From NCBI GenBank assembly GCA_030526985.1, contig JAUNBT010000001.1, forward strand, positions 2,838-66,837: a stretch of DNA of 64,000 nucleotides, written 5' to 3'. The DNA is from Lachnospiraceae bacterium (GTDB lineage: Bacteria > Bacillota > Clostridia > Lachnospirales > Lachnospiraceae). Position numbers and translations under genes: made by a program. The notes below the pieces were generated by a model. It saw nothing but the letters and a program-made list of their open reading frames with translations. It searched no databases and was not told where the DNA came from. Positions 31,578-60,396 of this stretch are shown piece by piece; positions within the stretch are counted from its first letter, which is position 1; each line of letters begins with the position of its first letter.

Positions 31578-31583
31578 ATTGAT

Positions 31584-32738: not shown

Positions 32739-32750
32739 CCTGCTCTCCTC

Positions 32751-33518: not shown

Positions 33519-33547
33519 TTTTGTAATCTCCTTTTTGTTTTTTATAT

Positions 33548-34165
33548 CTATGCTTCTTCCATCAAGAGGCGGATCACCTGATTCGCCTGGTGGGCTGCGC
33601 ACAACGTCACTCTCGGAGCCAGCATGCCCTCCACCTTTTCAAAATCACTTTTTTCATCTCCGCAAAGGTAGAGCCGGCTCATCTTCTTTACGGTTCGTAT
33701 TTCATTTGCATCGCCGTATCCGGCCATCCCAGAACCGGAAATAATTTTTGTTCCGGGACATTTAGTTAAAATCCCATTAATCAGCCCTGCTTTTTGATCG
33801 GCTGCATCAAGTGCCTCGCAGACAATCTGACAGTCTTTAAATAGGATATGACAATTTTCCTCTGTTATTTTTTCCCGGCTCAAAGTAAGCGTAATCCCAG
33901 GATTTATTTTCTTTAAGTTTGTGGCAAGGGCCTCTACCTTATCCAAACCAATCTGGTCTAAGGTATACTGCTGTCGGTTCAGATTACTCTCCTCTACCTT
34001 ATCAAAATCCACCAGCACAAGAGACGAAATTCCGGTCCTTGCAAGCATAACAGCGATGTTGGATCCAAGCCCTCCGGCTCCGGCAATTCCAACCCTGCTT
34101 TTTTGCAGCCGATCATATACCTTGTCGGGCACTCTGGCAAACATTTCTCCTTTTTCGGCTCCCAT
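33548..34165 (-). CDS. thiF: Sulfur-carrier protein ThiS adenylyltransferase
   Basis: [11 protein letters not shown] Rossmann motif of the E1-like fold, and its position between thiS and thiG. The ATG at 34165 follows GGAGG. It ends in TAG. Confidence 0.8.
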
Positions 34166-34166
34166 A

Positions 34167-34361
34167 TCAGCCTCCCCCCACAAAGCTTACAATCTCCAAC
34201 TCATCTGCTTCACTTAAAAATGCACTGTCATATTCGGCCTTTGGAATAATCTCTCCGTTTTTTTCCACTGCAACCCGCAGCCGGTTATATCCTTGTTCTT
34301 CCAACAGACCGCCAACTGTCATCCTTTTGGTAAGCTCCATATAAGTTCCGTTGACCTTCAT
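34167..34361 (-). CDS. thiS: Sulfur-carrier protein ThiS
   Basis: 64 aa ending ...VSFVGGG, the ThiS/MoaD C-terminal GG. A GGAGGTG RBS is present. Confidence 0.85.
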   Translation of the reverse strand: MKVNGTYMELTKRMTVGGLLEEQGYNRLRVAVEKNGEIIPKAEYDSAFLSEADELEIVSFVGGG

Positions 34362-34399
34362 GATTTCGTCACCTCCAATTCAAAAATAATTCCCTATAT

Positions 34400-34462
34400 A
34401 GAAAAAAGGACATAAAATGAAACCCACACCCGAGGTGGTGTGCCCCATTTTATGTCCTTTAG
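34400..34462 (-). promoter_or_regulatory. Candidate thiS-motif (HMP-PP) riboswitch: a terminator-embedded hairpin in the thiS leader
   Basis: Minus strand: AAGGACAUAAAAUG-GGG-CACACC-ACCUCG-GGUGUG-GGUUUC-CAUUUUAUGUCCUU followed by UUUUUU. It sits about 40 nt upstream of the thiS ATG. The roughly 100-nt leader has no room for a TPP aptamer. Confidence 0.45.
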
Positions 34463-34471
34463 ACGTTTTTT

Positions 34472-34499
34472 ATTGTAACACAACAAAGAAAAATGTCAA
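34472..34499 (-). promoter_or_regulatory. SigA-type promoter of the thi operon
   Basis: Minus strand reads TTGACA-16 nt-TACAAT. Confidence 0.6.
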
Positions 34500-34540
34500 T
34501 ACTGTTTCTAAATTAATACAAACCGGAGGGCTTTGCCAGC

Positions 34541-34650
34541 AAATAAGAAAGAATCCCGCTTTGCGGGATTCTCCGCCTGCGGCGGGTCGCATAAGCGACA
34601 TCTTCCCTTCCGCCGCAGTGCGATCCTGCCCGGAGGGCTTCCCCGACAAA
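34541..34650 (-). ncRNA. GC-rich structured element of unknown class, ending in an intrinsic terminator
   Basis: Minus strand carries a 9-bp stem CUGCGGCGG/CCGCCGCAG enclosing GUCGC-UUAU-GCGAC. Next comes the perfect hairpin AGAAUCCCGC-AAA-GCGGGAUUCU followed by UUCUUAUUU. It is far more GC-rich than its surroundings. Confidence 0.3.
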
Positions 34651-34769
34651 TAAAAAACTACCATCATACTGTCCATTCCCCCCAGAATGCTGGCGACAGT
34701 ATAACGATAGTTCCGTCTTTTGTTTTTGTCAAACAAAACGATTAAAGTCTTTGCTACTTTTTAATCAGT
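34651..34769 (-). ncRNA. Candidate ~120-nt small RNA or leader (consensus promoter to strong terminator)
   Basis: It begins about 7 nt downstream of a perfect TTGACA-17-TATAAT promoter. It has two AU-rich hairpins. A 17-bp stem ACUAUCGUUAUACUGUC/GACAGUAUGAUGGUAGU then follows, with UUUUUU after it. Confidence 0.35.
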
Positions 34770-34775
34770 GTGTTA

Positions 34776-34804
34776 ATTATACAGTTTTGTAATCATTTTG
34801 TCAA
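34776..34804 (-). promoter_or_regulatory. Consensus SigA promoter (TTGACA-17-TATAAT)
   Basis: Plus strand has ATTATA at 34776-34781 and TGTCAA at 34799-34804, with an exact 17-nt spacer. Confidence 0.65.
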
Positions 34805-34832
34805 GCCTTTTATTGCATATTTCACAATTATC

Positions 34833-35049
34833 GTAACAGGTCAGCCTTCGGCTGACCTCAAGAATTTTGATGCAGAACATATTGGCGACAATGAATAAGG
34901 TTGAAAATTTCCTATGGGCAAAAAACAAGCTTTTTATCTCCCTTTAGAAAAATGAATGCCAAAATGAAGTTTTCAGCAGTAAATTATGGGATTTAACAAC
35001 AAAATTAGATAAATTTTAAAGTCCAGTATTCCTATTGCCCAACCGATGG
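34833..35049 (+). repeat. Copy A of a ~215-bp repeat (inverted partner at 63754-63971)
   Basis: By-eye alignment to the reverse complement of 63754-63971 shows identical runs GGCGACAATGAATAAGGTTGA and TTAGAAAAATGAATGCCAAAA (21 nt each). Many shorter identical blocks are also present. Confidence 0.8.
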
Positions 35050-35123
35050 AATAAAGATGTCATATATCCCCTCATAGAAAGCCTGCCCCTCACCAAAAGA
35101 TATAGTCTCCCTTTCTTTTCTGT

Positions 35124-36446: not shown

Positions 36447-36839
36447 TCAGTCAAACAGGGCATTCATCCAGTCGAAAGAACAAATTACTTTGTCAATACC
36501 CCTCTGACAAAAAAATTCTTTTTTCCCTATATCATCGATTACAGCGATCGTCTGTTTCACCCCATATTTTTCTTTGCACATTTTACAGATTACAAAGTTA
36601 TCTTCCTCTTTTTGTCTCATCGCAATCACTGTATCTATCGTATCAACCATCGCTGCTTCTAATATCTTCGCCTTGCTTCCATCCCCCCAGACAACATGGA
36701 CTCTTTCCTCTTCTGCTAATCTTTCACATTCTTCTCTGTCCGGATTGATTACTGTCACCTGGTATCCTTGTTGAAGAAAGGTCTCTCCCAAAATCCGGCT
36801 TTTTTTCAAATCTCCAATCAGTAAAATATGATTTCCCAT
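36447..36839 (-). CDS. TrkA-N (NAD-binding) domain protein
   Basis: MGNHILLIGDLKKSRILGETFLQQGYQVTVIN is a Rossmann-type RCK N-domain. The ATG at 36839 is preferred over the ORF-track start. Confidence 0.6.
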   Translation of the reverse strand: MGNHILLIGDLKKSRILGETFLQQGYQVTVINPDREECERLAEEERVHVVWGDGSKAKILEAAMVDTIDTVIAMRQKEEDNFVICKMCKEKYGVKQTIAVIDDIGKKEFFCQRGIDKVICSFDWMNALFD

Positions 36840-36840
36840 T

Positions 36841-37278
36841 TTACAGCCCCCATTCTTCAAAACGATTTTTTTCTTCCTCTGAAATCTTAATCGGACAAAA
36901 CAACTCGATTCCACTTTGTTTTAAAAGAGACTGCTTATCCTCATCATCAACCCGGCTTACTATGTTGGGAAGCTGATACTTATATTGAACCAATTCAGCT
37001 GTAAATAGATTCACATTATCCCGGTCTGTCACTGCCACAAAAAGGTCTGCCTCCTTTATTCCCGCTTTTTCCAACACGAAAAAATCCCCCGCATCACCGG
37101 TCACTCTTTCTCCGCCGTAATCAGAAGAAAGCTTTTGAAAGGCCTCTTTTCTTGTATCAATCACTGTGACATGATGGTTTTTCCTGTAAAAATACATGGC
37201 AAGCTCTGCTCCCGTTCTTCCGCAGCCTGCAATCACAATATTCTTTATCCTTTTTCCAAATAATTTCATATTTAACAC
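36841..37278 (-). CDS. TrkA-N (NAD-binding) domain protein
   Basis: IVIAGCGRTGAELAMYFYRKNHHVTVIDT is a Rossmann-type RCK N-domain. 145 aa. GGGAGGTG RBS. Confidence 0.65.
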   Translation of the reverse strand: MLNMKLFGKRIKNIVIAGCGRTGAELAMYFYRKNHHVTVIDTRKEAFQKLSSDYGGERVTGDAGDFFVLEKAGIKEADLFVAVTDRDNVNLFTAELVQYKYQLPNIVSRVDDEDKQSLLKQSGIELFCPIKISEEEKNRFEEWGL

Positions 37279-43797: not shown

Positions 43798-45126
43798 TTA
43801 TATCCCTTTTTGAATCATTTCATAAATCTGTTCTAAATTAAGACACTCCCGAACAACATCAGCAAGCCGGTCATACTGATTCTCCCGATATTGTGCCAAT
43901 GTAAAATGTTCCATTCTACTGCTGTTTAAACCCTTTTCCTTTAAAATAGACCGGACAATTCGTTTTAGTATCTCCTCATGGGAAAATACTCCCTTTTCCT
44001 TTGTCCCATATACATTTTCTTCCCGTTTCTCATTATTTTCTGTTTCGGATGCATCGGTAAGAAAGCCCATTCCGTGTATCTGTGTACCGTCTGTTCCAAT
44101 CAGCTCTTCCCCTAACATTTGACATCCACTGCAGATACCCAGCACTGGTTTATCCCTGAACACATGCTGCATAATCCTTGTCTCCAAACCATTTCGCCGC
44201 ATCCACAAAAGATCTGCAACAGGATCTGTAGAATGAGGAAGAATCAGAAAATCCGGGTCTCCCACTTCACTCAAACTGGCTGCATAGTGCAGGGAAACTT
44301 CCTCCACACATTCTAACGGATTAAATTCCACATAGCTTTCTATATGAGGAAAATGAATCACGGTAATATCAACCACAGGATTCGAATTTTCTTTTTCATA
44401 CTGTCCATTGAATTCCTCTATATCATCGATGGAAGAATAGAGATAAGGAAAGATGCCAAGAACCGGAACCTGCCCTTTTTGTTCTGTTAGACGAATCATT
44501 GTAAGAAGGCTCTTTCTATCTCCCCGGAATTTATTCAACAAAAATCCTTTCAGACATTTTTTAGCTTCCTCATCGAATAGACCGGCTGTACCTAACAGCT
44601 GGGCCATGGCACCACCTCTGTCCATATCTCCCATCAAAAGCACAGGAGTCTTTGTCCGTTTTGCGATTCCTGCATTCGCCATGTCCTCTCCATCCAAAAT
44701 AAATTCTACCGGGCTTCCAGCCCCTTCCATGATTACAATATCGTACTTTTTTGACAATTCCCCGTAAGAAGATAAAATCGCATCTTCCATGTATTTTCGT
44801 TGTTTTGCATATTCACTGACCGGCATCTGCCCATATACTTCTCCTTTTACGACCACCTGCATTTCAGAAGAATTGACAGCCTTAAAAAGGATGGGATTCA
44901 TAACCGATTCCGGCTGAATTCGGGCTGCTTCTGCCTGAAGCGCCTGCATTTTACTGATTTCTTTTCCGTCATTCGTGATGAAGGTTCTCAAAGCCATGCT
45001 TTTGGGACAAAAAGGTGCTACTTTATACCCATCCTGGCAAAATGCCCTAGATAATCCTGCAATCAGGGTACTTTTTCCCACATTCGCCATCGTTCCCTGA
45101 ATCATCATCGACTTTCCCATATTCAC
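43798..45126 (-). CDS. Cobyric acid synthase-like amidotransferase (CobQ/CbiP family, short form)
   Basis: MIQGTMANVGKSTLIAGL (CobQ N-terminal P-loop), IMEGAGSP, and a GATase-like GICSGCQMLG motif. At 442 aa it is shorter than typical CobQ. Confidence 0.7.
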   Translation of the reverse strand: MNMGKSMMIQGTMANVGKSTLIAGLSRAFCQDGYKVAPFCPKSMALRTFITNDGKEISKMQALQAEAARIQPESVMNPILFKAVNSSEMQVVVKGEVYGQMPVSEYAKQRKYMEDAILSSYGELSKKYDIVIMEGAGSPVEFILDGEDMANAGIAKRTKTPVLLMGDMDRGGAMAQLLGTAGLFDEEAKKCLKGFLLNKFRGDRKSLLTMIRLTEQKGQVPVLGIFPYLYSSIDDIEEFNGQYEKENSNPVVDITVIHFPHIESYVEFNPLECVEEVSLHYAASLSEVGDPDFLILPHSTDPVADLLWMRRNGLETRIMQHVFRDKPVLGICSGCQMLGEELIGTDGTQIHGMGFLTDASETENNEKREENVYGTKEKGVFSHEEILKRIVRSILKEKGLNSSRMEHFTLAQYRENQYDRLADVVRECLNLEQIYEMIQKGI

Positions 45127-45145
45127 CTACCTCCCATACTCTCAC

Positions 45146-46561
45146 TTATTTTTTCTGTTCCATATATTCTTTTAAGGCGGCTCCCAATGCCTGACAACCC
45201 TTCACAATTTCCTCTTCTGTCATAGCATTAAACCCGACCAGAAAAGTATCTTCTCTGGCCCGGTTTTTCTGATAATAGTACTCCTTTGTACCGTATATTC
45301 CTATTGAACGATTTTTCATCCATTCAATCAGCTCATTCTGATTTTTACAATCCGGAATTCTGATTAGAGTATGAACTCCTGCCGGATGCTCAAAAAGTTC
45401 AATATATTTTTTTAAATACTTCTTTAATGCCCCCACCAACACATGATATTTCTGCTCATTTATCAGGGAAATTCGTCGGATATGTTTTTCTAAGGAGCCT
45501 TCCTCAATAAATCGAAACAGCGCTCTTTGGTGATAACTGGGCAAAGCAGAATTAAAATACTGATATACCTCCTGATACCGGGGCAAAAGCTGTTCTGGTA
45601 AAACAAGATAGGCACATCGGATTGACGGCAGCATTACCTTCGATAATGTGCCGGTATAAATGACTCTGTCTTCTTCGTCTAAAGACTGAAAAGACGGGAT
45701 TGGCACCACACCGTACCGGAATTCACTGTCATAATCATTTTCAATGATATAAGCATCATTTTCTCTGGACCAGTCAAGAATTCTTTTTCTCTTTTTTACA
45801 CTGGTCACTGTTCCGGTAGGAAACTGATGAGAAGGAGTCATATAAACTAAGTTACAATTTGTATTTTCTAAAAGTTCAGCATCGATTCCGTCGTCCAATA
45901 CCGGAATAGATGTGATACTGTATCCTTTATTAATAAAAATATTTCTCATGGCATCATAGCCCGGCTCTTCATAAGCTAAACGATACTGATTCGCCGGAAG
46001 CAGCGTTGTGATAATATCCACTGCAAACTGGGTTCCCGGACACATAATAACCTGCTCCGGTTTACATTTTACACCTCTGTGCTTATTTAAAAAACTGCAC
46101 AGACTTTTTCTTAACTCTTCATTTCCTTTATTGCATTCATATGGAATTGTCTGCATGCTTTCTTCGTCAAGCAATGCTTCCTGTATGCATTTTTTCCATT
46201 TATTCCAGGGAAATACACTGGTATCGATACTGGAATATAAAAAATCATATTTGTTATAAAACTCTTCTGATGGTTCTTTTTTAGAGAAATGTTTCTTCCG
46301 GCTGTTTTGTTCAAAATAGTCCTTCGTAATATCTTCTACATAATAACCGGAACCAGGAACAGAACGGATATAGCCTTCCGCCAAAAGCTGCTGATAAGCC
46401 CGATCCACCGTATTTTTGCTAATCTGAAGCTCTTTTGCTAAAATGCGGACAGAGCTTAAAACTGTATTTTGAGGTAATTTTCCAGTGACGATTTCTTCCT
46501 TCAATTCTTCATACAATTGTTCATATAACGGTTTGTTAATATTTTTATCTAAATAAACCAT
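45146..46561 (-). CDS. MocR-type regulator (GntR wHTH fused to a PLP aminotransferase-like domain)
   Basis: N-terminus LSSVRILAKELQISKNTVDRAYQQLLAEGYI. The roughly 350-aa C-terminus has a fold-type I aminotransferase pattern (...TGTLSKVMLPSIRCAY...). Confidence 0.8.
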   Translation of the reverse strand: MVYLDKNINKPLYEQLYEELKEEIVTGKLPQNTVLSSVRILAKELQISKNTVDRAYQQLLAEGYIRSVPGSGYYVEDITKDYFEQNSRKKHFSKKEPSEEFYNKYDFLYSSIDTSVFPWNKWKKCIQEALLDEESMQTIPYECNKGNEELRKSLCSFLNKHRGVKCKPEQVIMCPGTQFAVDIITTLLPANQYRLAYEEPGYDAMRNIFINKGYSITSIPVLDDGIDAELLENTNCNLVYMTPSHQFPTGTVTSVKKRKRILDWSRENDAYIIENDYDSEFRYGVVPIPSFQSLDEEDRVIYTGTLSKVMLPSIRCAYLVLPEQLLPRYQEVYQYFNSALPSYHQRALFRFIEEGSLEKHIRRISLINEQKYHVLVGALKKYLKKYIELFEHPAGVHTLIRIPDCKNQNELIEWMKNRSIGIYGTKEYYYQKNRAREDTFLVGFNAMTEEEIVKGCQALGAALKEYMEQKK

Positions 46562-46576
46562 TCTTTATCCACTCCA

Positions 46577-47281
46577 TTACCCAACCCACCTTGCGGCATA
46601 ATTTTTGCAATATTCACAGTTCTTATGTCCGGACAGACACTCACTGCAGTTCATTGACGACAGAACCATCTCCTGATCTAGAAGAAGGAAAATGCCGACA
46701 AAGCTTTTGACTGGATTCATCATCCCACTCTCTAAAAGTTCTAAGTCAATCTTTTTGTGATCCATAAATCGAAAGAATGTCCGCACCTTCGAAGATGCTA
46801 TGCCAAACATACCCGGTGCAAGCGTATCTGTAATATACAGTTCCTTTTTGTACTCTTTCTTTGCTTTTTTTAGCAGCAGTTCTCTTAGCACATCCCTTCC
46901 GGCATCCACAAAGCTTGTCTGCCAGGAATCAGCCAGATACATTTCACTGACCGGATAGGACGAAAGATCCGGCATCGGTGCATGAAACATAAATACATAT
47001 CCGCCCAGGACACTTTCTAAGTCCACTTTACTTAATATATTACATTCAATTTTATAATTTTCAAGAAGAAAATGGTCTTCTTTCACACATTCTTTTGTAA
47101 AAGGACGAAGTAAAAAATCCATCTTTGTGCCGTCAAATATCTTTTTCCTAACTTTCATCGCATTGTCCCGGATTTTTTTTGCCCCTTTGGTATCCCGGTC
47201 AAATCCGCACATCACTGCCATATACTGTTCTGAAAGGTCGTATAACTTCTCCGTCTCTATTGTCAAAATTTCATCTGGCAT
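46577..47281 (-). CDS. Methionine-synthase activation-domain-like protein with a C-terminal CX2CX6CX2C motif
   Basis: 234 aa. ...LAPGMFGI.......F.....IDLELLESGMMNPVKSF.GI... resembles stand-alone MetH activation (Met_synt_B12-like) proteins of Clostridia. The tail reads CSECLSGHKNCEYC. Confidence 0.5.
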   Translation of the reverse strand: MPDEILTIETEKLYDLSEQYMAVMCGFDRDTKGAKKIRDNAMKVRKKIFDGTKMDFLLRPFTKECVKEDHFLLENYKIECNILSKVDLESVLGGYVFMFHAPMPDLSSYPVSEMYLADSWQTSFVDAGRDVLRELLLKKAKKEYKKELYITDTLAPGMFGIASSKVRTFFRFMDHKKIDLELLESGMMNPVKSFVGIFLLLDQEMVLSSMNCSECLSGHKNCEYCKNYAARWVG

Positions 47282-47289
47282 TTTCTCTC

Positions 47290-48330
47290 CTAATATTTTC
47301 CGTATGTATTCGCTTCCTCCACCATAACTCTGGCAAAATGATCATCCATCAGTGCCGGATATTCACAGCCGGTGGCAAGGATGAATCCGCCATCCTTTTT
47401 GTAGGCATCGATCTGTTCCCGGCAGAGTTTTCTCAGTCTTTCATCATCGGCCACCATTAAAAATCCCGGGTCGATATGTCCAATAATCGTTGTCTGGCTT
47501 CCGTATTTTTCTTTTAATTCCTCCATAGTCCCACAGTCTGGTGGAAGATAAAGCATGGAAATCGCTTCCGGATGCATCCTTGCAATCTGCTCTTTAAAAT
47601 AAATACCGTCTCCGCAGTTGTGAATCATAAATGCTTTTCCCTGACGATGGACATTTTCAGCCAGCCTCTGTAAGGCTGCTCCCTCAAACTCATCCCACAT
47701 AGATGCTCTCATAATTGTTTTGGAAGAATATAAAGTATCGTACATAATACCATCGGCACCCGCTTCAATGAGGGCATTACTGTACTCAATCAAAACATCT
47801 GTAACAACATTGATTTTTTCTTTGACTTTGTCCTTCATTTTTTTCTTCATACAGTGCATCATAAGTCCCTCTAAGCCGGTCATCATACTCAATATCCCCA
47901 TCGGTCCAAATACAAAGGCAATAATCGGATACTCTTTTCCCTTTTTCTCAACCAGAATCTTTGTAAGCTCAATCATTTTACTCATCCGCTCTGTTTTTCT
48001 CGGATTAATTGGAACGACCTTTTCGTAATCTTCCAATGTTTTGATAAAAGTATCACCGGAAGGCATCACCGCTTTATCTGGATAGTAGGTAATATCCATT
48101 CCCCAGTCTGCAGCCTCCACAGATAAATCCACTAAAGTTACGATCACATCTAATCCCAAATCTTCTGTTGTCTTAATAATCGCATCTGCACATTTTTCAG
48201 GATCCTTTGTCCACTCATCATAACCAATTCCATATTTTCTCCATGAAATACTGTTGCAAATCGGGTAAACAGGAACTCTGTCTGCCTCCTCATGGTTTAA
48301 TATTTTCATTACTCTTTCCCTTGCATTCAT
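47290..48330 (-). CDS. Uroporphyrinogen decarboxylase (URO-D) family methyltransferase (MtaA/MtbA/CmuA-like)
   Basis: 346 aa. MNARERVMKILNHEEADRVPVYP and the overall length are typical of the corrinoid-dependent MT2/URO-D family. It ends in TAG. Confidence 0.7.
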   Translation of the reverse strand: MNARERVMKILNHEEADRVPVYPICNSISWRKYGIGYDEWTKDPEKCADAIIKTTEDLGLDVIVTLVDLSVEAADWGMDITYYPDKAVMPSGDTFIKTLEDYEKVVPINPRKTERMSKMIELTKILVEKKGKEYPIIAFVFGPMGILSMMTGLEGLMMHCMKKKMKDKVKEKINVVTDVLIEYSNALIEAGADGIMYDTLYSSKTIMRASMWDEFEGAALQRLAENVHRQGKAFMIHNCGDGIYFKEQIARMHPEAISMLYLPPDCGTMEELKEKYGSQTTIIGHIDPGFLMVADDERLRKLCREQIDAYKKDGGFILATGCEYPALMDDHFARVMVEEANTYGKY

Positions 48331-48493
48331 GTCTAATCCCTCCTGGATGTGTAATCAACCTTGCTGTTGTATAACTATATTTATACTATCTGTCTCTTTT
48401 TTCGGAAAGTGTCAATTATGAAAAAAAAGAATGGGACAATTTTTTTCACACAGGCAGTAAAGCTGCAAAATCACTTTCATCTATCCACCTTTT

Positions 48494-50470
48494 TCAGATT
48501 CCGCAGTATGCCGTTACCGTCACTCTTCCACCTAACAGCAGACTTTTGCCGCCTGTATTGGATTGAAACTGATCTACATTCTGAAAGAAGGTCACTTCAC
48601 CCCTTCCCCCTCTTTCCTTTAACTTTTCTTCTGCCGTTTTTTCTAAATATTTTGTCACAATCTCAACAGCCTCTTCAAAGTCTTCCACGATTTTTTTCTC
48701 TCCTGAAAGAAAGAATCGGAAACCTTCTTTTTCCTTCTCACTTCCAAAACTAAGCTCGATTGCATCTGTCACTGCTATTCTTCCAGCCAGTGTGCCAACT
48801 GCATTCGCCGCCATAGAATATGGAGGGATGCATACTTTTGCCGACAGTTTTTTTCCCACTTTCTCCATAAAAATGTGGGCCGGTCCTCCAACTCCGACTA
48901 TGGAAAGCTTACTGAAAAATCCGGGAACAATCAACTCAGACTGATTTTCTTCGCTTGCATATTCAATGAAACGGGACAGTTCCTCCGGAATTCCGTTTTG
49001 ATAAAGTTTCGTCCCTTTTTCCAAAAGGACCCGGACAATATTACAGTAAAGTTTTCTTTCCACAAGAGCATAAATTTCATCCGCTATTTCGTTTTCTGTC
49101 CGCTCTTCAAGCTTAGCCAAAAACCGGAGTACAATCCGGGAAGCCTCCCCATCAAATCCATTGTAATCCCCTTTTACATGCATGGCATCTGTGGGCGTGA
49201 TACCAAACCGTAAAAGAACCCCTTCTTTTTCCAACTGTTTTACAGTATCCTCCAGATAGTATCTTCCACAAAGATGGGCTGCTTCCTCGTAAAGAATGGG
49301 GCCATCCTTTAACCTTTCTATCAGTGCAAGCTGTTTTTCGTCGTAATAAGCCGCATTCCTGCTTTCATCCTGGAGGACAAATCCCTCAAAGACAAAACCT
49401 TTCCCCAACTTTTTTACAAGCGGAAGCTGTTTTAATTTCTCCAAAAGCTCCGGATAGCAGGCCGCCGCCATAGCAACCGGCATGACACGAAAATTTTCCA
49501 GGTACAGTCCTTTCTCGTTATATCTGATACAGCTGTCACCGCCCAGGCCAACGGTATCGATATAGAGACCTTTTACAAAGGTTTTCCAGCCATTCATTCG
49601 AATCCCATCTTTTACTGTGACCGCCATCCCATTTCGCAGAAGAGCCATATCCGTCGTGGTGCCGCCGATATCAACAATCAGGGCATCTTTTTCTTTCGAC
49701 AAAAAACTTCCTCCCACCGCACTAGCCGCCGGACCACACAAAAGAGTTTCTACCGGATGGTTTTTTGTAAATGTCTCATTCATCAATGTTCCATCGCTTC
49801 TCACCACATAAATCGGAAGATTTAAGCCTTTCCTTTTTAACACACATTTGACTGCGCACAAAAACTGGTCAATCAGTGGAATCAAACGGATATTTAGATA
49901 AGTACCGGCTCCCCGCATGATTGCATTTACATCAGAAAACAGAAAACTTCCACAGATCACTGGGACAGAATATCTCTTTTCAAACCGTTCTTTTGCCTGT
50001 CTTTCATAGGCCCCGTCGTTCCATTCAGGAAAATACTGCACAATTCCAATCGCTTCTGCCTCTTTAAATTCGTCCATCATCCCTTCTAGTTTCTCCCAGT
50101 CAGGCTCTACCGGTCTGCAAAATCCACCCTCCGGCACACCATCTATAAAATAGAGGTCGTCCATACCGTCAAAACCATATTGTTTGTAATGCCTTTTTAC
50201 GATTTCTTCTTTCACGCCGATAAATAAAAGCTTGACCCGTCCACCTTTATTTTCCACACACGCATTGGTAGCAAGGGTAGTAGAAAGGGAGACAAAGGAA
50301 ACTTCCCTTAATTTTTCTTTTTCCAAAAGATTTAGAGCCTTTTCGATTCCGGTTTCAAGATGTCCTTTTGTCGTCAGCGTTTTTCCGGTAGATAACACCT
50401 GCTGGCTGTCAAAATCATAGATTACCGCATCTGTACAGGTCCCTCCTGTATCAATTCCCAGTCCAATCAT
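48494..50470 (-). CDS. Hydantoinase/oxoprolinase-family (ASKHA-fold) ATPase
   Basis: 658 aa. N-terminus MIGLGIDTGGTCTDAVIYDF and an internal IVDIGGTTTDMAL are the two phosphate-binding motifs of hydantoinase A-type proteins. Its start lies 21 nt after the pylSc stop. Confidence 0.7.
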   Translation of the reverse strand: MIGLGIDTGGTCTDAVIYDFDSQQVLSTGKTLTTKGHLETGIEKALNLLEKEKLREVSFVSLSTTLATNACVENKGGRVKLLFIGVKEEIVKRHYKQYGFDGMDDLYFIDGVPEGGFCRPVEPDWEKLEGMMDEFKEAEAIGIVQYFPEWNDGAYERQAKERFEKRYSVPVICGSFLFSDVNAIMRGAGTYLNIRLIPLIDQFLCAVKCVLKRKGLNLPIYVVRSDGTLMNETFTKNHPVETLLCGPAASAVGGSFLSKEKDALIVDIGGTTTDMALLRNGMAVTVKDGIRMNGWKTFVKGLYIDTVGLGGDSCIRYNEKGLYLENFRVMPVAMAAACYPELLEKLKQLPLVKKLGKGFVFEGFVLQDESRNAAYYDEKQLALIERLKDGPILYEEAAHLCGRYYLEDTVKQLEKEGVLLRFGITPTDAMHVKGDYNGFDGEASRIVLRFLAKLEERTENEIADEIYALVERKLYCNIVRVLLEKGTKLYQNGIPEELSRFIEYASEENQSELIVPGFFSKLSIVGVGGPAHIFMEKVGKKLSAKVCIPPYSMAANAVGTLAGRIAVTDAIELSFGSEKEKEGFRFFLSGEKKIVEDFEEAVEIVTKYLEKTAEEKLKERGGRGEVTFFQNVDQFQSNTGGKSLLLGGRVTVTAYCGI

Positions 50471-51348: not shown

Positions 51349-51723
51349 TTACCTTTTTGCTTTTGAATCTGTAAATACGGTCGCCGAATATTTGGAAAGC
51401 TTCCACTGGGGCACTTTACATTTGGGACATGCATGCTGACACCAGCGATTCCGAATCCATCTTGCACTGCGGCTGTTTTTTGAATTCCACACGGTAAACT
51501 CTTCTCCGCAGTGAGTCGTAATATGAAGCATATTGCCCCGCTGTTCAATCTCTTTTATGCCATGAAGCACACCGGAACGGGCCGGCCATAATTTAATCTT
51601 ATGAATCAACTCATATAAACTCTGATTTTTATAAATATATCGTTTCGGTTCTATCTTTTTTTGTACTGTCCCCGCTGCCATCCTGATTCCCTCTTTTCTT
51701 TTTATGTCAGTTTTTGTTTTCAA
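51349..51723 (-). CDS. pylSn: Pyrrolysyl-tRNA synthetase N-terminal (tRNA-binding) subunit PylSn
   Basis: 124 aa. ...LWPARSGVLHGIK...ITTHCGEEFTVWNSKNSRSARWIRNRWCQHACPKCKV matches the zinc-binding PylS N-domain pattern. The start could instead be the internal Met at 51681. Confidence 0.8.
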   Translation of the reverse strand: MKTKTDIKRKEGIRMAAGTVQKKIEPKRYIYKNQSLYELIHKIKLWPARSGVLHGIKEIEQRGNMLHITTHCGEEFTVWNSKNSRSARWIRNRWCQHACPKCKVPQWKLSKYSATVFTDSKAKR

Positions 51724-53754: not shown

Positions 53755-54801
53755 TTATCGCTGACTTTGTCTTTTTTCAATCCATTTTTGGTAACTTAAG
53801 GCGCCTGCATCGGAAAGCCCACATTCCTTTACAGTCTCCATAATACCTTCCACGGTACGTCCGCCTTCATCAATATCGGTTTTCGCACTGGCAACCCCGG
53901 CAAATCCTTTTTTCGGTGGGATAATGGATGTGATTACATTTGCCCCCGCCATCAGACGCTGTTTTAATCCGTTAAGGCCATCCACGTCTAAAGAGGCCGG
54001 AATCAGTCTGTCCGGAAACAAAATCCTCATCAGTGCAATATTTAAAAGTTCATCGTGAAAACTTCTGCGTTCTATTTTTCCCATCGGTGTTCCATCCTGG
54101 GGGATAAATGTCATCGTCCTTACCTGAGAGGCTCCTAAACGCTCCATTTCTTGAAAGGACAAATAAATATCTTCCCTCGATTCCCCTACTCCTGTAAGAA
54201 GTCCTTCCTCAATCAACATTCCTTTTTGAGCTGCATATTCTTTCGCCGCCATTCTTTCTTCGTAAGGCTGTCCGGTCCGCAGACTATCATAGAGCTTCTT
54301 TTGATGTGTCTCCTGATACAGTGCATACCAGGAAGCTCCAGCTTCTGCAAGCTGATCAATTACTTTGTGGGAGACAACCCCGGGAGAAATCATGACTGGG
54401 AGTCCAGTTTTATCCTTTACCTCCCTGACCGTCTCTATCAGTTCCTCCGGATGAGAAATATAATAAGGATCTTCTCCCATAGTAAGATCAATTAGATGAA
54501 CACCGGATTCTTTTAAACTTACCGCCGTCTCAATAATCTCCTGTCGGCTTTTCCGATAGCGGGGCGGTTGTTTATTTTCTTTCCGGTAAAAGCAGAAAGA
54601 ACAATTATTTCTACAATAAGTAGAAAAATAGACAAATCCATAAAAAAATACCTGGTCATTAAAATATTTCTGTCTGACCTTTCTTGCTGCCCTATAGATT
54701 TCCTCTCTGGCATCCTCCTCTTTCTGATTTAATAAAAATAGGATTTCTTCCTTTTTAAAATTTTCTATTCCTGTTTTCTTTAAAATATCTGTCAGATTCA
54801 T
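53755..54801 (-). CDS. pylB: Methylornithine synthase PylB (radical SAM)
   Basis: 348 aa. YFSTYCRNNCSFCFYRKEN (CX3CX2C), biotin-synthase-like fold, and its position at the head of pylBCD. Confidence 0.85.
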   Translation of the reverse strand: MNLTDILKKTGIENFKKEEILFLLNQKEEDAREEIYRAARKVRQKYFNDQVFFYGFVYFSTYCRNNCSFCFYRKENKQPPRYRKSRQEIIETAVSLKESGVHLIDLTMGEDPYYISHPEELIETVREVKDKTGLPVMISPGVVSHKVIDQLAEAGASWYALYQETHQKKLYDSLRTGQPYEERMAAKEYAAQKGMLIEEGLLTGVGESREDIYLSFQEMERLGASQVRTMTFIPQDGTPMGKIERRSFHDELLNIALMRILFPDRLIPASLDVDGLNGLKQRLMAGANVITSIIPPKKGFAGVASAKTDIDEGGRTVEGIMETVKECGLSDAGALSYQKWIEKRQSQR

Positions 54802-54851: not shown

Positions 54852-54888
54852 AAAAAAGAGAAGTGTATCCGCTACACTTCTCTTTTTT
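54852..54888 (-). terminator. Symmetric intrinsic terminator between pylT and pylB
   Basis: Stem AGAGAAGTGTA / TACACTTCTCT with an A-run on one side and a T-run on the other, so it is potentially bidirectional. Confidence 0.6.
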
Positions 54889-54933: not shown

Positions 54934-55002
54934 CGGAGAATCCCGGCGCTGCACCCGGCTGTACGGAGTTAGAGTCCGCATGATCACTTCGATCCATCCT
55001 CC
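54934..55002 (-). tRNA. pylT: tRNA-Pyl (anticodon CUA)
   Basis: Manual fold of GGAGGATGGATCGAAGTGATCATGCGGACTCTAACTCCGTACAGCCGGGTGCAGCGCCGGGATTCTCCG. It has a 7-bp acceptor stem, a single linker nt, a 4-bp D stem with a 5-nt loop, a 6-bp anticodon stem, loop CUCUAAC, and a 3-nt variable loop CAG. CCA is not encoded. Confidence 0.85.
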
Positions 55003-55123: not shown

Positions 55124-56512
55124 TTAATCCCAATAATCTAATCCAAGGCCTTTTAAGATTTCAACTGCCTCATCATAAATCTCAACATATTCCTGTGATG
55201 GTGTCAGAGTCTTCACGTCATAGCATTCCTGGAATTTCTTTCCTGTCGGAGCAGTCTTATAGTCCTTCTCATACATGGAAACTAACTTATCCAGTAATAC
55301 ATTTACCTCATGAAGATCCATTCCTGCAACAGCATGTGCTGCCTCACCCATCATTCTGGCCTCCATTGCGGTAAATAAATCTGTTGTTACTCCTTTACAG
55401 GATGCAACACCGGAGAGAATCTCTCTTCCACTTGCCGTATCTGTAATTGCCTGTGCCGCTGTCTCTAAAAGACACATAACGGTACATGGACCAGCCAGAG
55501 TATAGTATTGATTTCCAAGGATTAAATGTGTATTTTCTTCAATTGCTTTTGCTGCATGACCTGCCACGCAAAGAGCTTCTCTCGCTGTTGTGATACCCCA
55601 GCGGACGTGAACAGGACCATCCAGATGCCAGGTAGCCTGTAACATTACAAAAGAGTTCAGTGTAGTTGCTACGTCAACGATTGTGGTAGCCTCAAGACCA
55701 CCAGCATATCCTCCGTAAATCGGCATCTGCTCTACCATAACATTTACACCAGCTTCTGCGTAATGAGCACCAACACACAACGCACCTACGTCGATTTTGA
55801 GCTCATTAAGCTGGGAAACCTCATGGGAGTCAGATGGACGCATGCCGCCCTCGAAGTCTGCTTCGATTACACCAGCGGCACTAAGGGATGTTTCGTTGCC
55901 CTACAATCCCATGCCGCATCGTCCGGCTCTCATCTGTGCTTCCCGCACCTGTAAAGCTTCGGAACGAACGGCCATAATTTCCCAAGGTGATCCTGGAACA
56001 GGATCTTTGCCCATCACTGTCTGCATAACACCGTCAACAATCGTATCCACAATTGGTTCCTGAGCATATGCCTGATGGATCGGAAGGAACATTTCCTCTG
56101 AACATGGAGATCCGGTCGGACCACCCTGAATCACAGGTGCCTTCTTTTCACTGGAATGTCTCGGTACTACGTTGATGGCCTCTTTGCCCTCACCGTATGT
56201 AAAATGATCCGGTGCTGTTTTAATTGCATGCAGCACTTCATCTCTTGTATATTTAATTACTCTTTTCGTATCGATGCAGTAAACACCACATTCTACCAAA
56301 AGGTCTAACCCTGCTTGAAACAGCTTATCACAAAGCTCTTTATCTTCAGGTATAATCGTCTTTTTATCCATTTTGATGCCGTACTTTTTCTTTAAAGCAG
56401 CGGCGGTCTGAGGAATGACTTTAAAATCCCATTCTTTTTCATCCATCTTAGGACCGCTTTTTGCTCTGTCATAGACATCATAAACGGTAATCGCTTTTCC
56501 GATTGCCTTCAT
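55124..56512 (-). CDS. mtmB: Monomethylamine methyltransferase MtmB with an in-frame UAG (pyrrolysine) codon at 55901-55903
   Basis: ORF-track pieces 55901-56512 and 55124-55843 are in the same frame and are separated only by TAG. Manual read-through gives ...AGRCGMGL-[UAG]-GNETSLSAAGVIEADFEGGMRPSDSHEVSQLNELKID... This is collinear with archaeal MtmB, which carries Pyl at the equivalent position. Confidence 0.9.
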
Positions 56513-56515
56513 CCT

Positions 56516-57178
56516 TTAAGCACTCCTTTTCTCACTCAATAATTTCTTTGCTATCTCAACTGCTTCTGTTGCCGTATCGGAATATCCGTCTGCCCCGATT
56601 GTATCGCACCATTCTTTTGAAACCGGTGCACCGCCAAACATGACAATATAATCGTCTCTGACTCCATCCTCATTTAAGAGAGTAATAATGTCTCTCTGAG
56701 CCGGCATGGTTGTGGTCATCAGCGCGGATCCTAAAATAATATCTGCATTGACTTCCTTTGCTGTTTCCACAACTGTTTCCACTGGTACATCACGTCCTAA
56801 ATCATGGACTGTAAAATTGTTTGCGGAAAACATTGTCTTTACAATATTTTTTCCAATATCATGGATATCTCCCTGAACGGTATGGATTACAACAGTTCCA
56901 TTCGACGTACTGTTCTTTTCTTCCTCAGTCATTCCACTCGTCAGAATTTCCACCGCTTTTTCAAAAGCTTCGGAAGCCATCAAAAGTTCCGGTACAAAAG
57001 CTTCTCCTTCGTCAAACAGATCACTCATTTTCTGCATTCCGGCAGATAAACCTTCGCTGATACATTCTAAGGGATCTAATCCAGCTTCTAAAGCGGCATT
57101 GGCAGCTTCTTCGGCAATGTCTTCATCCATCTCTGTAACGGCTTCTTCTAACTTGCTCATAATCTCTTCTTTGCTCAT
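56516..57178 (-). CDS. mtmC: Methylamine-specific corrinoid protein (MtmC-like, B12-binding)
   Basis: DxHxxG motif GDIHDIGKNIV and a helical-cap N-domain. The ATG at 57178 follows AGGAGG. Its stop lies 3 nt before the mtmB start. Confidence 0.85.
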   Translation of the reverse strand: MSKEEIMSKLEEAVTEMDEDIAEEAANAALEAGLDPLECISEGLSAGMQKMSDLFDEGEAFVPELLMASEAFEKAVEILTSGMTEEEKNSTSNGTVVIHTVQGDIHDIGKNIVKTMFSANNFTVHDLGRDVPVETVVETAKEVNADIILGSALMTTTMPAQRDIITLLNEDGVRDDYIVMFGGAPVSKEWCDTIGADGYSDTATEAVEIAKKLLSEKRSA

Positions 57179-57412
57179 CTTCCAACCTCCTTTATGTCTT
57201 CTCTTCATAGCCTCTAGCACATGAGCTTTTTTGTTCCTCATGTCTATGGTTCGTATTATACGGATTTTTTTGTCCTCTCTAAAGGGACAATCCCGGCGTT
57301 TTTTTCGGGGTCAGGAAAAAAATCTGCACAAAACGGCTTAAAATAAGGCTTTTTTTCTATTTCCTACTATTTTGCTTCCCCTTCTTTTCCTTTTTCCCTT
57401 TTTCTTTTTTGG

Positions 57413-57492: not shown

Positions 57493-59193
57493 CTATGCTG
57501 TTTTCGTTTTTCCTGTTTCTTCTTTTTCTGTCAACTTTTTAATTCCCTGAATTGCCACAATAACACCAAGAATTAATAACAGTACGGCGAAAATCAGCTG
57601 CAGTGTATTTCCAAGGCTTAATCCGGTTGTCATAAATGCTTTTGTCAGATTGATGATTGTCATGGAAAGAGCAGTAAAGGTAACTGCCATCATAAATACC
57701 ATCGGAATCCAGAGCATTGCACCCTGCCGTTTTGTTTTCTTTAAAAATACTGCGCAGGCTACAAGAGCAAGTACAGAAAGCAGCTGGTTTGCAGAACCAA
57801 ACAGCGGCCAAATTTCTGCGTAACCTACTTTAGCTAACAGATAAGCAAGAACTAAGGTGATAACGGTTGCAAAATATTTATTCGTCATCAGTTTGATTAC
57901 AGGACTCATGTTCTTTGTATCTGTATCTTCATCCATGAAAAATTCCTGGAAGGAAAGTCTTCCGATTCTGGCTACAGAGTCCAAAGAAGTCAGTGCAAAA
58001 GCAGATACAGCTAAATTAATTAATGTAAATACCAGGCTATGAGGAAGTCCCACTGCTGATAAGAAATTGGCAATCGCACCGGCAAAAATCTGAGGCTGTG
58101 TTGTCAGTCCCTGCGCTGCTGCCTCTCCTTCTGCAAAAGAAGCAACTGCAATCAATGCGATAATAGCAAGCATACTCTCCATCAACATGGCACCGTAAGC
58201 TACTGGAAGCATATGCTTCTCACTCTTGATCTGTTTGGAAGCGGTACCGGAAGATACTAAGGAATGGAATCCGGATACTGCACCACAAGCGATTGTAACA
58301 AATAAGATTGGGAACATATACTGTCCGTCCACATTAAATCCATTAAATGCAGAAAGGTTACAGGACGGATTTGCCACAAAGACTCCGACAACTGCACCGA
58401 CAATCATAAAAATCAACAGGTAACTGTTCAGATAATCACGAGGCTGAAGCAGTGCCCACACAGGAACCACACATGCGATCATAATGTATAAAAAGATAAT
58501 AATATGCCATACATCCCTTGTAATGTAGATTGGGAAATTAAGACCAACAGCAACAGCTACCACAAGCATGACAATAGCAATAATCGTGTTGACCCATTTT
58601 GATAATTTTGCATATTTTAAAATCATTCCAAGTAAAACTGCCTCTAAGATAAACAGCATGGAAGTCATAGCAACTGCACCATTTGCTGCCACTTTTGTCA
58701 CAGTACCTGCCTCATCTGCAACAAAACCGTTAAAGGTTCCTGCTACAACGTCAGCAAAAGCTGCAACAACAAGAATACAAAACAGCCAGCAGAAAAGTAA
58801 AAATAATTTCTTTCCAAGCTTACCAATGTACTCTTCGATAATATAACCAATGGTACGTCCTTTGTTTTTTACTGAGGCGTACATGGATGCGAAATCCTGC
58901 ACCGCACCAAAGAATACACCACCAATTAAAATCCAAAGTAAAACAGGAAGCCAACCAAAGATTGCTGCCTGAATCGGGCCGTTAATCGGTCCTGCGCCAG
59001 CGATAGAAGCAAACTGATGTCCAAATACAACGTTTGTATCTGCCGGAACATAGTCCACACCGTCTTCAAACTCGTAAGCCGGAGTTTTTGCATTAGGGTC
59101 AATGCCCCACTTGTTCTGTAAATAGCGGCCATAAAGCAGATAAGCTCCGCCTAATACGATGATCGCTATTACCATCATTAAAATACCACTCAT
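57493..59193 (-). CDS. cstA: Carbon starvation protein A family transporter
   Basis: 566 aa. VFGHQFASIAGAGPINGPIQAA is the conserved CstA N-terminal motif. It ends in TAG. Confidence 0.85.
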   Translation of the reverse strand: MSGILMMVIAIIVLGGAYLLYGRYLQNKWGIDPNAKTPAYEFEDGVDYVPADTNVVFGHQFASIAGAGPINGPIQAAIFGWLPVLLWILIGGVFFGAVQDFASMYASVKNKGRTIGYIIEEYIGKLGKKLFLLFCWLFCILVVAAFADVVAGTFNGFVADEAGTVTKVAANGAVAMTSMLFILEAVLLGMILKYAKLSKWVNTIIAIVMLVVAVAVGLNFPIYITRDVWHIIIFLYIMIACVVPVWALLQPRDYLNSYLLIFMIVGAVVGVFVANPSCNLSAFNGFNVDGQYMFPILFVTIACGAVSGFHSLVSSGTASKQIKSEKHMLPVAYGAMLMESMLAIIALIAVASFAEGEAAAQGLTTQPQIFAGAIANFLSAVGLPHSLVFTLINLAVSAFALTSLDSVARIGRLSFQEFFMDEDTDTKNMSPVIKLMTNKYFATVITLVLAYLLAKVGYAEIWPLFGSANQLLSVLALVACAVFLKKTKRQGAMLWIPMVFMMAVTFTALSMTIINLTKAFMTTGLSLGNTLQLIFAVLLLILGVIVAIQGIKKLTEKEETGKTKTA

Positions 59194-59385: not shown

Positions 59386-60396
59386 TTAACTTAATTTTCT
59401 TAAGGTGACAGCCCGGATAATACCGGCGAGAGCCGCATATAACACTCCAGCTACCGGCCAGATAATCCAGCTTATATGCCAATTATTATAGTAAAAACTA
59501 ATACCAAGATAAATTGCCGTCGCAAGACACCAGTATGCACCTGGGAAAAAACTGGTCTTTTTTCTAACGATTTTATTCTCCGGTGTAAATTCTTCCTCCT
59601 GCAAAAGTTTCTGATAAGCCTCATAAGGCCCACCTACACAGATAAAAATAAACACTCCCATGGCAACTAAAAGCAAAAGATCCACCACACATAATACCAT
59701 CACCAGCTCCGTTGCACCGAATGCACCTGTACCGATTAACGGTACTACAGATACAATACATAGCGCTGTTCCAATCGCTATGCCTTTATGAAATCCAGCT
59801 TCACAACCTTCTTTCTGTTCCTGAATGAAACTTCTGGTACTTCCATCCATTGTGATCCGTTCTTCTCCCAGATACTGATATTTTTTCAGATGTCCGTCTG
59901 TCAGTACCAGTATCACCACTCCAACTATGATAAAAAGGAAAAGTACAATCATCCCAATTCCTCCTGCCATGTTTTCTGTAACATACTGCGGTGTATATTC
60001 TGACATAGCACCAAGGAGCAACAGGCAGACCGGAGAGAGGATAAACAGTACAACAGCTAATGCTATCTTTTTTACATTTGCTTTCGTTACAGCTATGAAA
60101 TCTTCCGCTTCCTGACGAGACACATATCTTCCAGTTTCTTTTTCTTCCATATAGGTAGTTTCCAGATGAGCGGTGCCGTCTTTTTCCTGTTCTTCTTCAT
60201 TCTCTTCTTTTAAAAGATAATCCGTTGTGACCTGAAATATCTCACTTAATTTCAATATCTTATCCAAATCCGGAACCGATGCTTCTGATTCCCACTTGGA
60301 AACAGACTGTCTGGATATGCCAAGCTGTCCGGCCAAATCCTCTTGAGACCAGCCTTTTTGTTTTCTTAAAATCATGATTTTTTCTGCAAGCTTCAT
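59386..60396 (-). CDS. XRE-family HTH regulator fused to a multi-TM membrane domain
   Basis: N-terminus [30 protein letters not shown] (HTH_3), followed by 5-6 TM segments. Confidence 0.75.

Follow-up and report, generated by a model that had tools for sequence, protein, structure and literature searches.

The accessory block and its genes

The stretch of DNA analysed here, referred to as the window, comprises 64,000 nucleotides of contig JAUNBT010000001.1 from a Lachnospiraceae bacterium (GenBank GCA_030526985.1). The genome of this bacterium (G000 in the following) amounts to 3.87 Mb in 532 contigs and is 89% complete. The window contains the genes of a pyrrolysine (Pyl)-dependent monomethylamine methyltransferase system, MtmBC, and this whole region is located on the minus strand. 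In transcription order, mtmC, mtmB with its in-frame TAG codon, pylT, and pylBCDSnSc are followed by a block of five open reading frames (ORFs), which forms the 3' part of the region and is the subject of this work. The first of them codes for a HyuA-like ATPase. As detailed below, the family of this ATPase is widespread and appears to go with corrinoid methyltransferase systems irrespective of the substrate used, and RACo, the activase of such systems, is not replaced by it. The five ORFs are:

48494..50470, minus strand: HyuA-like ASKHA ATPase, 658 amino acids; Pfam Hydant_A_N (PF05378) and Hydantoinase_A (PF01968), both above cut-offs
47290..48330, minus strand: MtaA/MtbA-like methyltransferase of the URO-D family, 346 amino acids; Pfam URO-D, E 4e-55
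46577..47281, minus strand: protein of 234 amino acids resembling the MetH reactivation domain according to its predicted fold, with a C-terminal CX2CX6CX2C motif
45146..46561, minus strand: MocR-type regulator (GntR helix-turn-helix and aminotransferase fold), PdxR-like; NCBIfam PdxR, 466.6 bits at a cut-off of 320
43798..45126, minus strand: CobQ paralogue, C-terminally divergent, 442 amino acids; identified by domain profiles

Position and domain content of these ORFs agree with a preliminary description of the window. The same holds for the start of the ATPase gene, whose ATG follows the stop codon of pylSc by 21 nucleotides (nt). The gene possesses a GGAG-type ribosome-binding site. A gap of 163 nt separates the ATPase gene from the URO-D gene, and the next four genes (URO-D, 234-residue protein, MocR, CobQ) lie 8–19 nt apart. 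A scan for promoter and terminator consensus sequences gave no more sites than were obtained with shuffled sequences, and it showed nothing decisive in the 163-nt gap.

The ATPase has a HyuA fold and no HyuB partner

Besides the two hydantoinase domains, the ATPase gave a weak match to MutL/GlmL. The Hydantoinase_A profile covers the protein through model positions 1–153 of 291 only. A structure model was computed (predicted local distance difference test, pLDDT, 87.4) and compared with solved structures by means of Foldseek. The best matches were the beta subunit of acetone carboxylase, N-methylhydantoinase, acetophenone carboxylase, and caprolactamase, with template modelling (TM) scores of about 0.6 over the full length. 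For the matches 5svc_B, 9h03, 5l9w, and 6yra, E values ranged from 1e-22 to 1e-26 at a sequence identity of 14–16%. The ASKHA phosphate motifs DTGGT and DxGGTTTD are invariant among 61 aligned ATPases, and a single Cys (C71) is invariant in the same alignment. A match to Fer2 or Fer4, an Fe-S motif, and a Cys cluster for electron transfer were not detected in the protein. The RACo_middle and RACo_C_ter domains are missing as well (no match to PF17651 or PF14574).

A HyuB partner is the defining feature of known HyuA enzymes. Hydantoinase_B (PF02538) was not found in the 89% complete genome G000, whereas control genomes gave matches, and it was not seen among 128 immediate neighbours of the ATPase in other genomes. 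The protein is a HyuA-fold ATPase that lacks HyuB, and it is named 'hydantoinase/oxoprolinase family protein' throughout the databases. The ESM Atlas holds a 795-residue cluster automatically named 'DUF1638/Hydantoinase', which has 51 members, mostly from Thermodesulfobacteriota, and which may represent a fusion of an ATPase of this type to DUF1638. G000 contains one DUF1638 gene, located on another contig (G000:C129:5742-6236).

The ATPase accompanies corrinoid methyltransferases and RACo

The preliminary description had reported that no RamA-type gene is present in the window, which holds for the scanned ORFs near the block, and had regarded the block as a possible stand-in for such an activase. 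A canonical activase encoded elsewhere, which it had named as evidence against this idea, was looked for in G000. Two activases of the RACo/RamA type with the full architecture (Fer2, RACo linker, middle, and C-terminal domain) were found on contigs C344 and C463, and each of them clusters with a methyltransferase of the MttB family and a corrinoid protein. The RamA-free module is therefore not supported. Furthermore, G000 contains two paralogues of the ATPase, which are 41–42% identical to the protein from the window. On C344, the order of genes is corrinoid protein, MttB homologue, ATPase, URO-D, a 232-residue protein on the opposite strand, and RACo. The 232-residue protein is weakly similar to the 234-residue protein and also carries a Cys motif at its end. 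On contig C113, the ATPase gene and a third URO-D gene are transcribed divergently. As all three copies of the ATPase are found beside URO-D/corrinoid genes, the ATPase goes with these genes in this genome; one of the three copies (C344) shares its cluster with a canonical activase. The C344 copy is split into ORFs of 486 and 163 amino acids (L007:10845-12305, 12362-12853); the gene may truly be split, or a frameshift or an error in the assembly may be the cause.

In order to compare neighbourhoods, one genome per species was scanned, which yielded 593 confirmed relatives of the ATPase. The best 80 loci were kept, and the ATPase gene was called in 74 of them; neighbouring genes were labelled with profiles built on the proteins of G000. 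According to Pfam, the 128 immediate neighbours are mostly unrelated; among them are four URO-D, two MTTB, two RACo, two Pterin_bind, two PocR-AraC proteins, and one DUF1638 protein. Corrinoid-methyltransferase genes made up 13/139, 10/131, and 8/123 of the genes at distances one, two, and three from the ATPase. Farther out, the corresponding values were 2/108 (distance five) and 5/103 (distance six). At least one such gene lies within three genes of the ATPase in 16 of the 74 loci. A second sample consisted of the ATPase loci from 34 other genomes of an evenly drawn class sample (see below); here, such a gene was found within three genes in 13 loci, which represent 9 of 24 genera. Two arrangements recur, namely MttB-ATPase-URO-D-RACo-MetH-like and ATPase-RACo-PocR-corrinoid protein. 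The ATPase, a MetH-like protein, and RACo share one cluster on C344 and in the loci L026, L105, L116, L120, and L121. Clustering the neighbours by BLAST was uninformative (326 clusters for 397 proteins).

In a tree of 75 ATPase sequences, the loci linked to corrinoid genes are scattered over several separate clades. Two small clades are fully linked; one is formed by the window, L011, and L012, the other by C344, L026, and L027. The first-step families at the linked loci differ and comprise MtmB, MttB, URO-D-only, and Pterin_bind clusters. This variety speaks for a role of the ATPase that is linked to the corrinoid machinery and not to one substrate.

Co-occurrence was determined for 399 scored genomes that were drawn evenly from the same class, with an E value below 1e-100 as the threshold for a member of the ATPase family. 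The ATPase is present in 35 of these genomes (about 9%) and RACo in 156. RACo was found in 33/35 genomes with the ATPase and in 123/364 genomes without it, which corresponds to an odds ratio of 32 (Fisher p 1e-12, kinship and lifestyle ignored). Counted by genus, RACo occurs in 24/25 genera with the ATPase compared to 101/217 of the others. Both genes lie within 5 kb of each other in 8 of the 35 genomes. Thus, the ATPase does not take the place of RACo; the two occur together and are often adjacent. Finally, orthologues of the ATPase, the URO-D protein, and the 234-residue protein coincide in the value of the longest contig in eight cases (53717, 12108, 49122, 40781, 24140, 25097, 17676, 74194). 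This circumstantial evidence suggests that the three form a conserved trio in these cases.

The URO-D protein and the MetH-like protein

The Pfam profile PF01208 matches the URO-D protein with 187.7 bits (cut-off 23.9) and covers positions 2–345 of its 346 residues. The best NCBIfam matches are all below their cut-offs: 137.1 bits were obtained for NF004889 (cut-off 244) and 118.4 bits for TIGR01463 (cut-off 235.4). The scores for MtaA and MtbA are 107.7 bits (cut-off 400) and 88.3 bits (cut-off 600), respectively. The nearest solved structure is that of MtaA (4ay7), with which the HxC motif and the distal Cys (GC) are aligned. The corresponding residues H237, C239, and C322 show no variation among 47 sequences, and we take the His-x-Cys...Cys positions to be the zinc ligands of MtaA. 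Judged from its sequence, the URO-D protein is a probable methylcorrinoid:acceptor enzyme, which would catalyse the second step. The URO-D paralogue on C344 (L007:12871-14232) comprises 453 amino acids; it has a C-terminal extension of about 120 residues with a CAAC motif, which may be thioredoxin-like.

For the 234-residue protein, the match to Pfam Met_synt_B12 (PF02965) is below the cut-off of 25 (12.5 bits, E 0.1) and spans the region APG...MxPxxSxxG. Sequence and profile searches of this protein against the PDB gave nothing relevant, and only the fold search led to matches. The structure model has a pLDDT of 89.7. Its top match in Foldseek is TM0269 (1j6r), followed by the MetH reactivation domains from E. 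coli, human, and Thermus; the top 13 matches listed are all TM0269 or MetH reactivation domains, with probabilities of 0.98–1.00. The four C-terminal Cys residues are invariant in 29 sequences. The subfamily occurs in 4 of the 399 class genomes. In two of these, the gene adjoins RACo and PylD is missing; the remaining two are positive for PylD, which holds for no other genome of the sample.

A profile search of 1.84 billion representatives yielded 753 relatives of the 234-residue protein, of which 150 were listed, and the 12 longer proteins among those listed were scanned for domains. Six of the 12 (P0297, P0343, P0347, P0361, P0395, P0413) consist of an N-terminal MetH-like domain, the RACo middle domain, and the RACo ASKHA domain. 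Five of these six fusions have no Pfam Fer2 match, and the MetH-like part carries the Cys motif; P0347 and P0395 contain an additional CX3CX2CX2C stretch. Two further proteins, P0273 (596 amino acids) and P0276 (584 amino acids, NCBI MFT3951931.1), are fusions of PylC and a MetH-like domain. They pass the PylC equivalog TIGR03909 with 352 and 332 bits (cut-off 248), and one of the two is an NCBI entry with the annotation PylC. Their MetH-like domains are 37–43% identical to the 234-residue protein, and P0276 is devoid of the terminal Cys motif. The remaining longer relatives contain the Cys-rich domain PF04071 (3/12) or an HD domain (1/12). The fusions to RACo and PylC are the most interesting by-products of this analysis. 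Two long RACo proteins from the neighbourhood loci (L019:14220-16415, L073:6921-9086) are probably MetH-like/RACo fusions, too.

The pyrrolysine genes and their linkage to the block

The genes that precede the block are, in transcription order:

59386-60396, minus strand: XRE-type regulator, first in transcription order
57493-59193, minus strand: CstA-family transporter, directly upstream of mtmC
56516..57241, minus strand: mtmC-type corrinoid protein; B12-binding_2 and B12-binding
55124..56512, minus strand: mtmB, two ORFs joined by an in-frame TAG (Pyl) at codon 204 (55901-55903)
54934..55002, minus strand: pylT, tRNA with anticodon CUA; read from the sequence, cloverleaf with an anticodon stem of 6 bp
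53755..54801, minus strand: pylB (radical SAM); Pfam Radical_SAM, 51% identity to pylB of the second pyl locus L097
52566..53780, minus strand: pylC; TIGR03909, 383 bits
51739..52548, minus strand: pylD; PF21455 PylD_N, E 1.2e-30
51349..51723, minus strand: pylSn, N-terminal subunit of pyrrolysyl-tRNA synthetase; TIGR03912, 124 bits
50492..51406, minus strand: pylSc, catalytic subunit of pyrrolysyl-tRNA synthetase; TIGR02367, 315 bits

With pylT(CUA), a split pylS, pylB, pylC, pylD, and a methylamine methyltransferase gene containing TAG, the bacterial pyrrolysine system is complete. The gene mtmB contains only one in-frame TAG. Its product aligns with MtmB1 from Methanosarcina barkeri (593 bits), including the Pyl position. 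A match to Rfam PYLIS_1 (55804-55903, minus strand) begins exactly at the TAG and reaches 66.2 bits at a gathering score of 70 (E 4e-13). ARAGORN did not detect the tRNA gene, and neither did Rfam, whether at the gathering threshold or with E values of up to 1. A stretch of 53 nt (L097:5505-5557) in the pyl locus of genome G209, the one further pyl locus that the class sample yielded, matches the gene with 90.6% identity. The gene is followed by a hairpin and a T-run at about 54852-54888. The CstA-family transporter and a gene of the ammonium transporter family in the MttBC-pyl cluster of G209 (L097:5520-6893) are candidate importers of methylamines. A complete bacterial MtmBC and pyl cluster as the one described here is rare and bears on bacterial methylamine turnover.

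Of 400 class genomes, two (G000 and G209) gave a PylD match above the cut-off, and 12 genomes from the same family gave none. The MtmBC-pyl system was probably acquired horizontally. In G209, the order of genes at the locus L097 is MetH-like, MerR, MttB(TAG), MttC, Pterin_bind methyltransferase, pylT, ammonium transporter, pylSc, B, C, D, and Sn. A metagenome scan with PylSc gave only two loci, L091 and L092. In L091, PylSc is 72% identical, and the downstream genes code for a MerR regulator and an isochorismatase; L092 shows a different gene order.

The preliminary description had considered that the ATPase might act directly in Pyl metabolism and had suggested checking the linkage of its family with pyl and mtm genes. 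With regard to pyl, no linkage was observed: pylD, pylSc, and pylSn were not found near the ATPase in the 80 loci or in the 34 loci of the second sample, and the three other pyl loci (L091, L092, L097) contain no ATPase. The data therefore do not support a direct function of this ATPase in the metabolism of Pyl. In contrast, linkage with corrinoid methyltransferase genes was confirmed for all three copies in G000, for 16/74 loci, and for 13/34 loci.

The MocR regulator, the short CobQ, and further genes

The CobQ protein of the window scores 401 bits with NF001989 (cut-off 273) and 308.4 bits with TIGR00313 (cut-off 309.9). It matches model positions 1–360/362 of 477, and GATase_3 is covered in positions 1–130 of 196. 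As a full-length CobQ is encoded on contig C374, the copy in the window is a second one. CobQ recurs in 2 of the 80 ATPase loci, and MocR in none of them, apart from one partial helix-turn-helix match (L066). A supposed second MocR near corrinoid genes in L103 turned out to be a 235-residue protein of the GntR type, and the idea that MocR recurs was dropped. Both MocR and the short CobQ lie outside the conserved module; they are passengers at this locus or serve its regulation and cofactor supply. Consequently, the corrinoid-related accessory module proposed in the preliminary description has to be confined to the ATPase, the URO-D protein, and the 234-residue protein, for which recurrence and the MetH fold speak; its parts concerning MocR, CobQ, and a substitute for RamA did not stand.

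Elsewhere in the window, a thiamine biosynthesis operon (ThiF, ThiG, ThiH-like, ThiE) is located at 30984-34183 and is adjoined by a gap at 34184-35123. At the gathering threshold, the whole window gave no match to any Rfam family and hence none to the thiamine pyrophosphate riboswitch. At 36447-37278 (minus strand), two overlapping ORFs of 155 and 145 amino acids each match TrkA_N and may be one frameshifted gene or two short paralogues.

A putative maintenance module for corrinoid methyltransferases

Corrinoid-dependent methyltransferases drive the use of methylamines, betaine, methanol, and methoxy-aromatic compounds in anaerobes of gut and sediment. To our knowledge, the RACo/RamA activase is the sole repair route described for these enzymes. 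We interpret the block as a module for corrinoid-methyltransferase maintenance and second-step methyl transfer that belongs to the Pyl-dependent MtmBC system and whose ATPase works alongside RACo; we assign a probability of about 0.55 to this reading. MtmB(Pyl) would methylate the corrinoid protein MtmC, and the URO-D protein, as a Zn-type enzyme similar to MtaA/MtbA, would hand the methyl group to an acceptor in the second step. The MetH-like Cys4 protein would be a component of corrinoid reactivation, of the kind found beside or fused to RACo-type activases, and its Cys4 motif may bind a metal or an Fe-S cluster. The ATPase would spend ATP on a maintenance step of the corrinoid protein or of the second-step complex. 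Loading or exchange of the cofactor and a conformational gating of reactivation are candidates for this step by analogy, because other ASKHA ATPases service B12 enzymes, namely RACo, GlmL/MutL, EutA, and DdrA. The activases encoded on the two other contigs would serve MtmC in trans. That the ATPase occurs almost always together with RACo and repeatedly inside corrinoid clusters points to a step in the upkeep of these systems that is so far unaccounted for.

Several observations weigh against this reading. In 58/74 and 21/34 loci, no recognisable corrinoid gene lies within three genes of the ATPase, and the neighbours are unrelated housekeeping genes. The background of URO-D genes is high (2–5% of genes even 5–10 genes away), which inflates proximity by chance. 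Clustering of the linked loci in the tree is modest, with 14 changes compared to a mean of 17 after shuffling, and 17–18 of 500 shuffles gave values as low. The association with RACo takes no account of kinship or lifestyle. RACo was not found in two of the genomes with the ATPase, which are 73% (G005) and 92% (G343) complete. Of the 156 genomes with RACo, no more than 33 carry the ATPase, so most corrinoid systems can do without it. G209, the second pyl genome of the sample, has no ATPase, neither at the locus nor in the whole genome at an E value of 1e-50. The local MetH-like profile is contaminated by RACo fusions, and the labels of the small proteins correspond to the best E value combined with a C-terminal Cys motif. 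Moreover, the roles put forward for the ATPase family are deduced from genes and predicted folds.

The same data allow for other explanations. The ATPase and the MetH-like Cys4 protein might by themselves make up a reductive activase that acts on MtmC independently of RamA, that is, a split analogue of RACo made of an ASKHA ATPase and a metal/S-adenosylmethionine (SAM) module. The pyl clusters of the window and of G209 would fit in, as each of them has a MetH-like protein and no RACo nearby, and so would the intact phosphate motifs of the ATPase. In the natural fusions of a MetH-like Cys domain to the RACo ASKHA domain, Fer2 is mostly missing, and the Cys motif could therefore carry electron transfer. 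Nevertheless, such an activase is unlikely, given the two RACo activases of the genome, the clusters that contain the ATPase, the MetH-like protein, and RACo at the same time, and the retention of RACo in 33 of 35 ATPase genomes. Likewise, the pyl-MttBC cluster of G209 combines a MetH-like protein with the absence of the ATPase, and the ATPase has just one invariant Cys. Somewhat less probable still is that the ATPase is an ordinary enzyme of the hydantoinase, oxoprolinase, or carboxylase type, which activates a lactam or ketone at the expense of ATP and is found near corrinoid genes by chance or due to shared regulation. The HyuA fold over the full length, the unrelated neighbours at most loci, and the uniform database names agree with this explanation. 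However, the genome contains three HyuA-like genes without any Hydantoinase_B, which is also missing from the 128 neighbours, and the Hydantoinase_A profile is matched in little more than its first half (153/291 positions). Enrichment near corrinoid genes and co-occurrence with them are further arguments against it, as is the induction of a HydA protein alongside the glycine-betaine methyltransferases of 'Ca. Formimonas warabiya' DCMF (PMC9768040).

A Pyl-specific role, in the synthesis or use of Pyl, appears very unlikely for the ATPase and is more plausible, within the same low estimate, for the 234-residue protein. It is suggested by the start of the ATPase gene immediately downstream of pylSc and by the two independent PylC fusions P0273 and P0276, which rank third and sixth among the 150 listed of the 753 proteins matching the 234-residue profile. 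Also, the four genomes that possess the 234-residue subfamily include both PylD-positive ones. For the ATPase, the lack of linkage in either direction contradicts such a role, and PylD is present in 2/400 genomes compared to 35/399 for the ATPase. For the 234-residue protein, the other two carrier genomes have the gene beside RACo and no PylD, and fusions to RACo are three times as many as fusions to PylC. The adjacency of pyl genes and accessory genes of methylamine methyltransferases in an operon would account for PylC fusions just as well.

The maintenance module might also be extended to a second system for the upkeep of corrinoid proteins that exists beside RACo and consists of the HyuB-less ATPase and the stand-alone MetH-like protein. 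The activation domain of MetH supports SAM-dependent reductive remethylation of MetH, and this type of reaction is, as far as we know, so far limited to methionine synthase. In the extended system, the Cys4 motif would be a redox metal centre, the MetH-like protein would perform SAM-dependent reductive remethylation, and the ATPase would supply an ATP-driven conformational or cofactor-exchange step. The at least two fusions of the MetH-like protein to PylC would result from its tight tie to the methylamine system in bacteria that use Pyl. We regard this extension as doubtful. Still, the fusions of the MetH-like Cys4 protein to RACo and PylC suggest that SAM-dependent reductive remethylation may serve methylotrophic corrinoid proteins.

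Comparison with known systems

The ATPase shares with the RACo/RamA activases, also designated RACE proteins, the ASKHA fold, conserved ATP-binding motifs, and the location in corrinoid methyltransferase clusters. It differs from them in lacking the RACo middle and C-terminal, Fer2, and 4Fe-4S domains; the similarity is that of ASKHA proteins in general (TMq 0.20), and the ATPase accompanies RACo instead of replacing it. With the HyuA enzymes, i.e. hydantoinases, 5-oxoprolinase/caprolactamase, and acetone and acetophenone carboxylases, it has the fold in common over the full length. In contrast to these enzymes, to which its identity is 14–16%, it has no HyuB that could be found in the genome, and its genomic company consists of corrinoid methyltransferases and not of genes for lactam or ketone catabolism.

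The predicted fold of the 234-residue protein matches TM0269 from Thermotoga maritima and the reactivation domain of MetH (1j6r, 1msk, 6bdy, 2o2k). Unlike these, it is below the threshold in Pfam, ends with an invariant Cys4 motif, and is accompanied by methylamine or quaternary-amine corrinoid proteins and RACo and not by MetH. The URO-D protein belongs to the same superfamily as MtaA/MtbA and the bacterial Mlp proteins (PMC10418091); it has the conserved HxC...C, and MtaA is the nearest structure. It differs from MtaA/MtbA in scoring below the NCBIfam cut-offs and in originating from a bacterium without coenzyme M. The clusters of the URO-D protein Mlp are accompanied by RACE proteins, and no mention of a HyuA-like ATPase was found in the available excerpts of that report (PMC10418091). 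During evolution of Methanosarcina acetivorans on methylotrophic substrates, one population acquired a frameshift in the putative hydantoinase/oxoprolinase MA4396, as stated in an excerpt of 10.1101/2025.05.05.652248; its connection to the ATPase is by annotation.

According to PMC9768040, the genome of 'Ca. Formimonas warabiya' DCMF contains an 'N-methylhydantoinase A' gene in a glycine-betaine methyltransferase cluster, whose genes are labelled CoP, MTI, HydA, and MTII. All nine proteins of the cluster were strongly induced on glycine betaine as determined by proteomics, synteny of the cluster was reported for Sporomusa ovata and for 'Ca. Frackibacter', and HydA is given no function. The association of such an ATPase gene with corrinoid methyltransferase genes has thus already been drawn there, in the one pertinent paper that the literature search yielded. 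Likened by gene labels alone, the gene set of the DCMF cluster resembles that of C344 and, with the pyl genes inserted, that of the window. The first-step enzyme of DCMF is a non-Pyl homologue of MttB, whereas that of the window is a Pyl-containing MtmB, and here the pyl operon separates the ATPase gene from that of the first-step enzyme.

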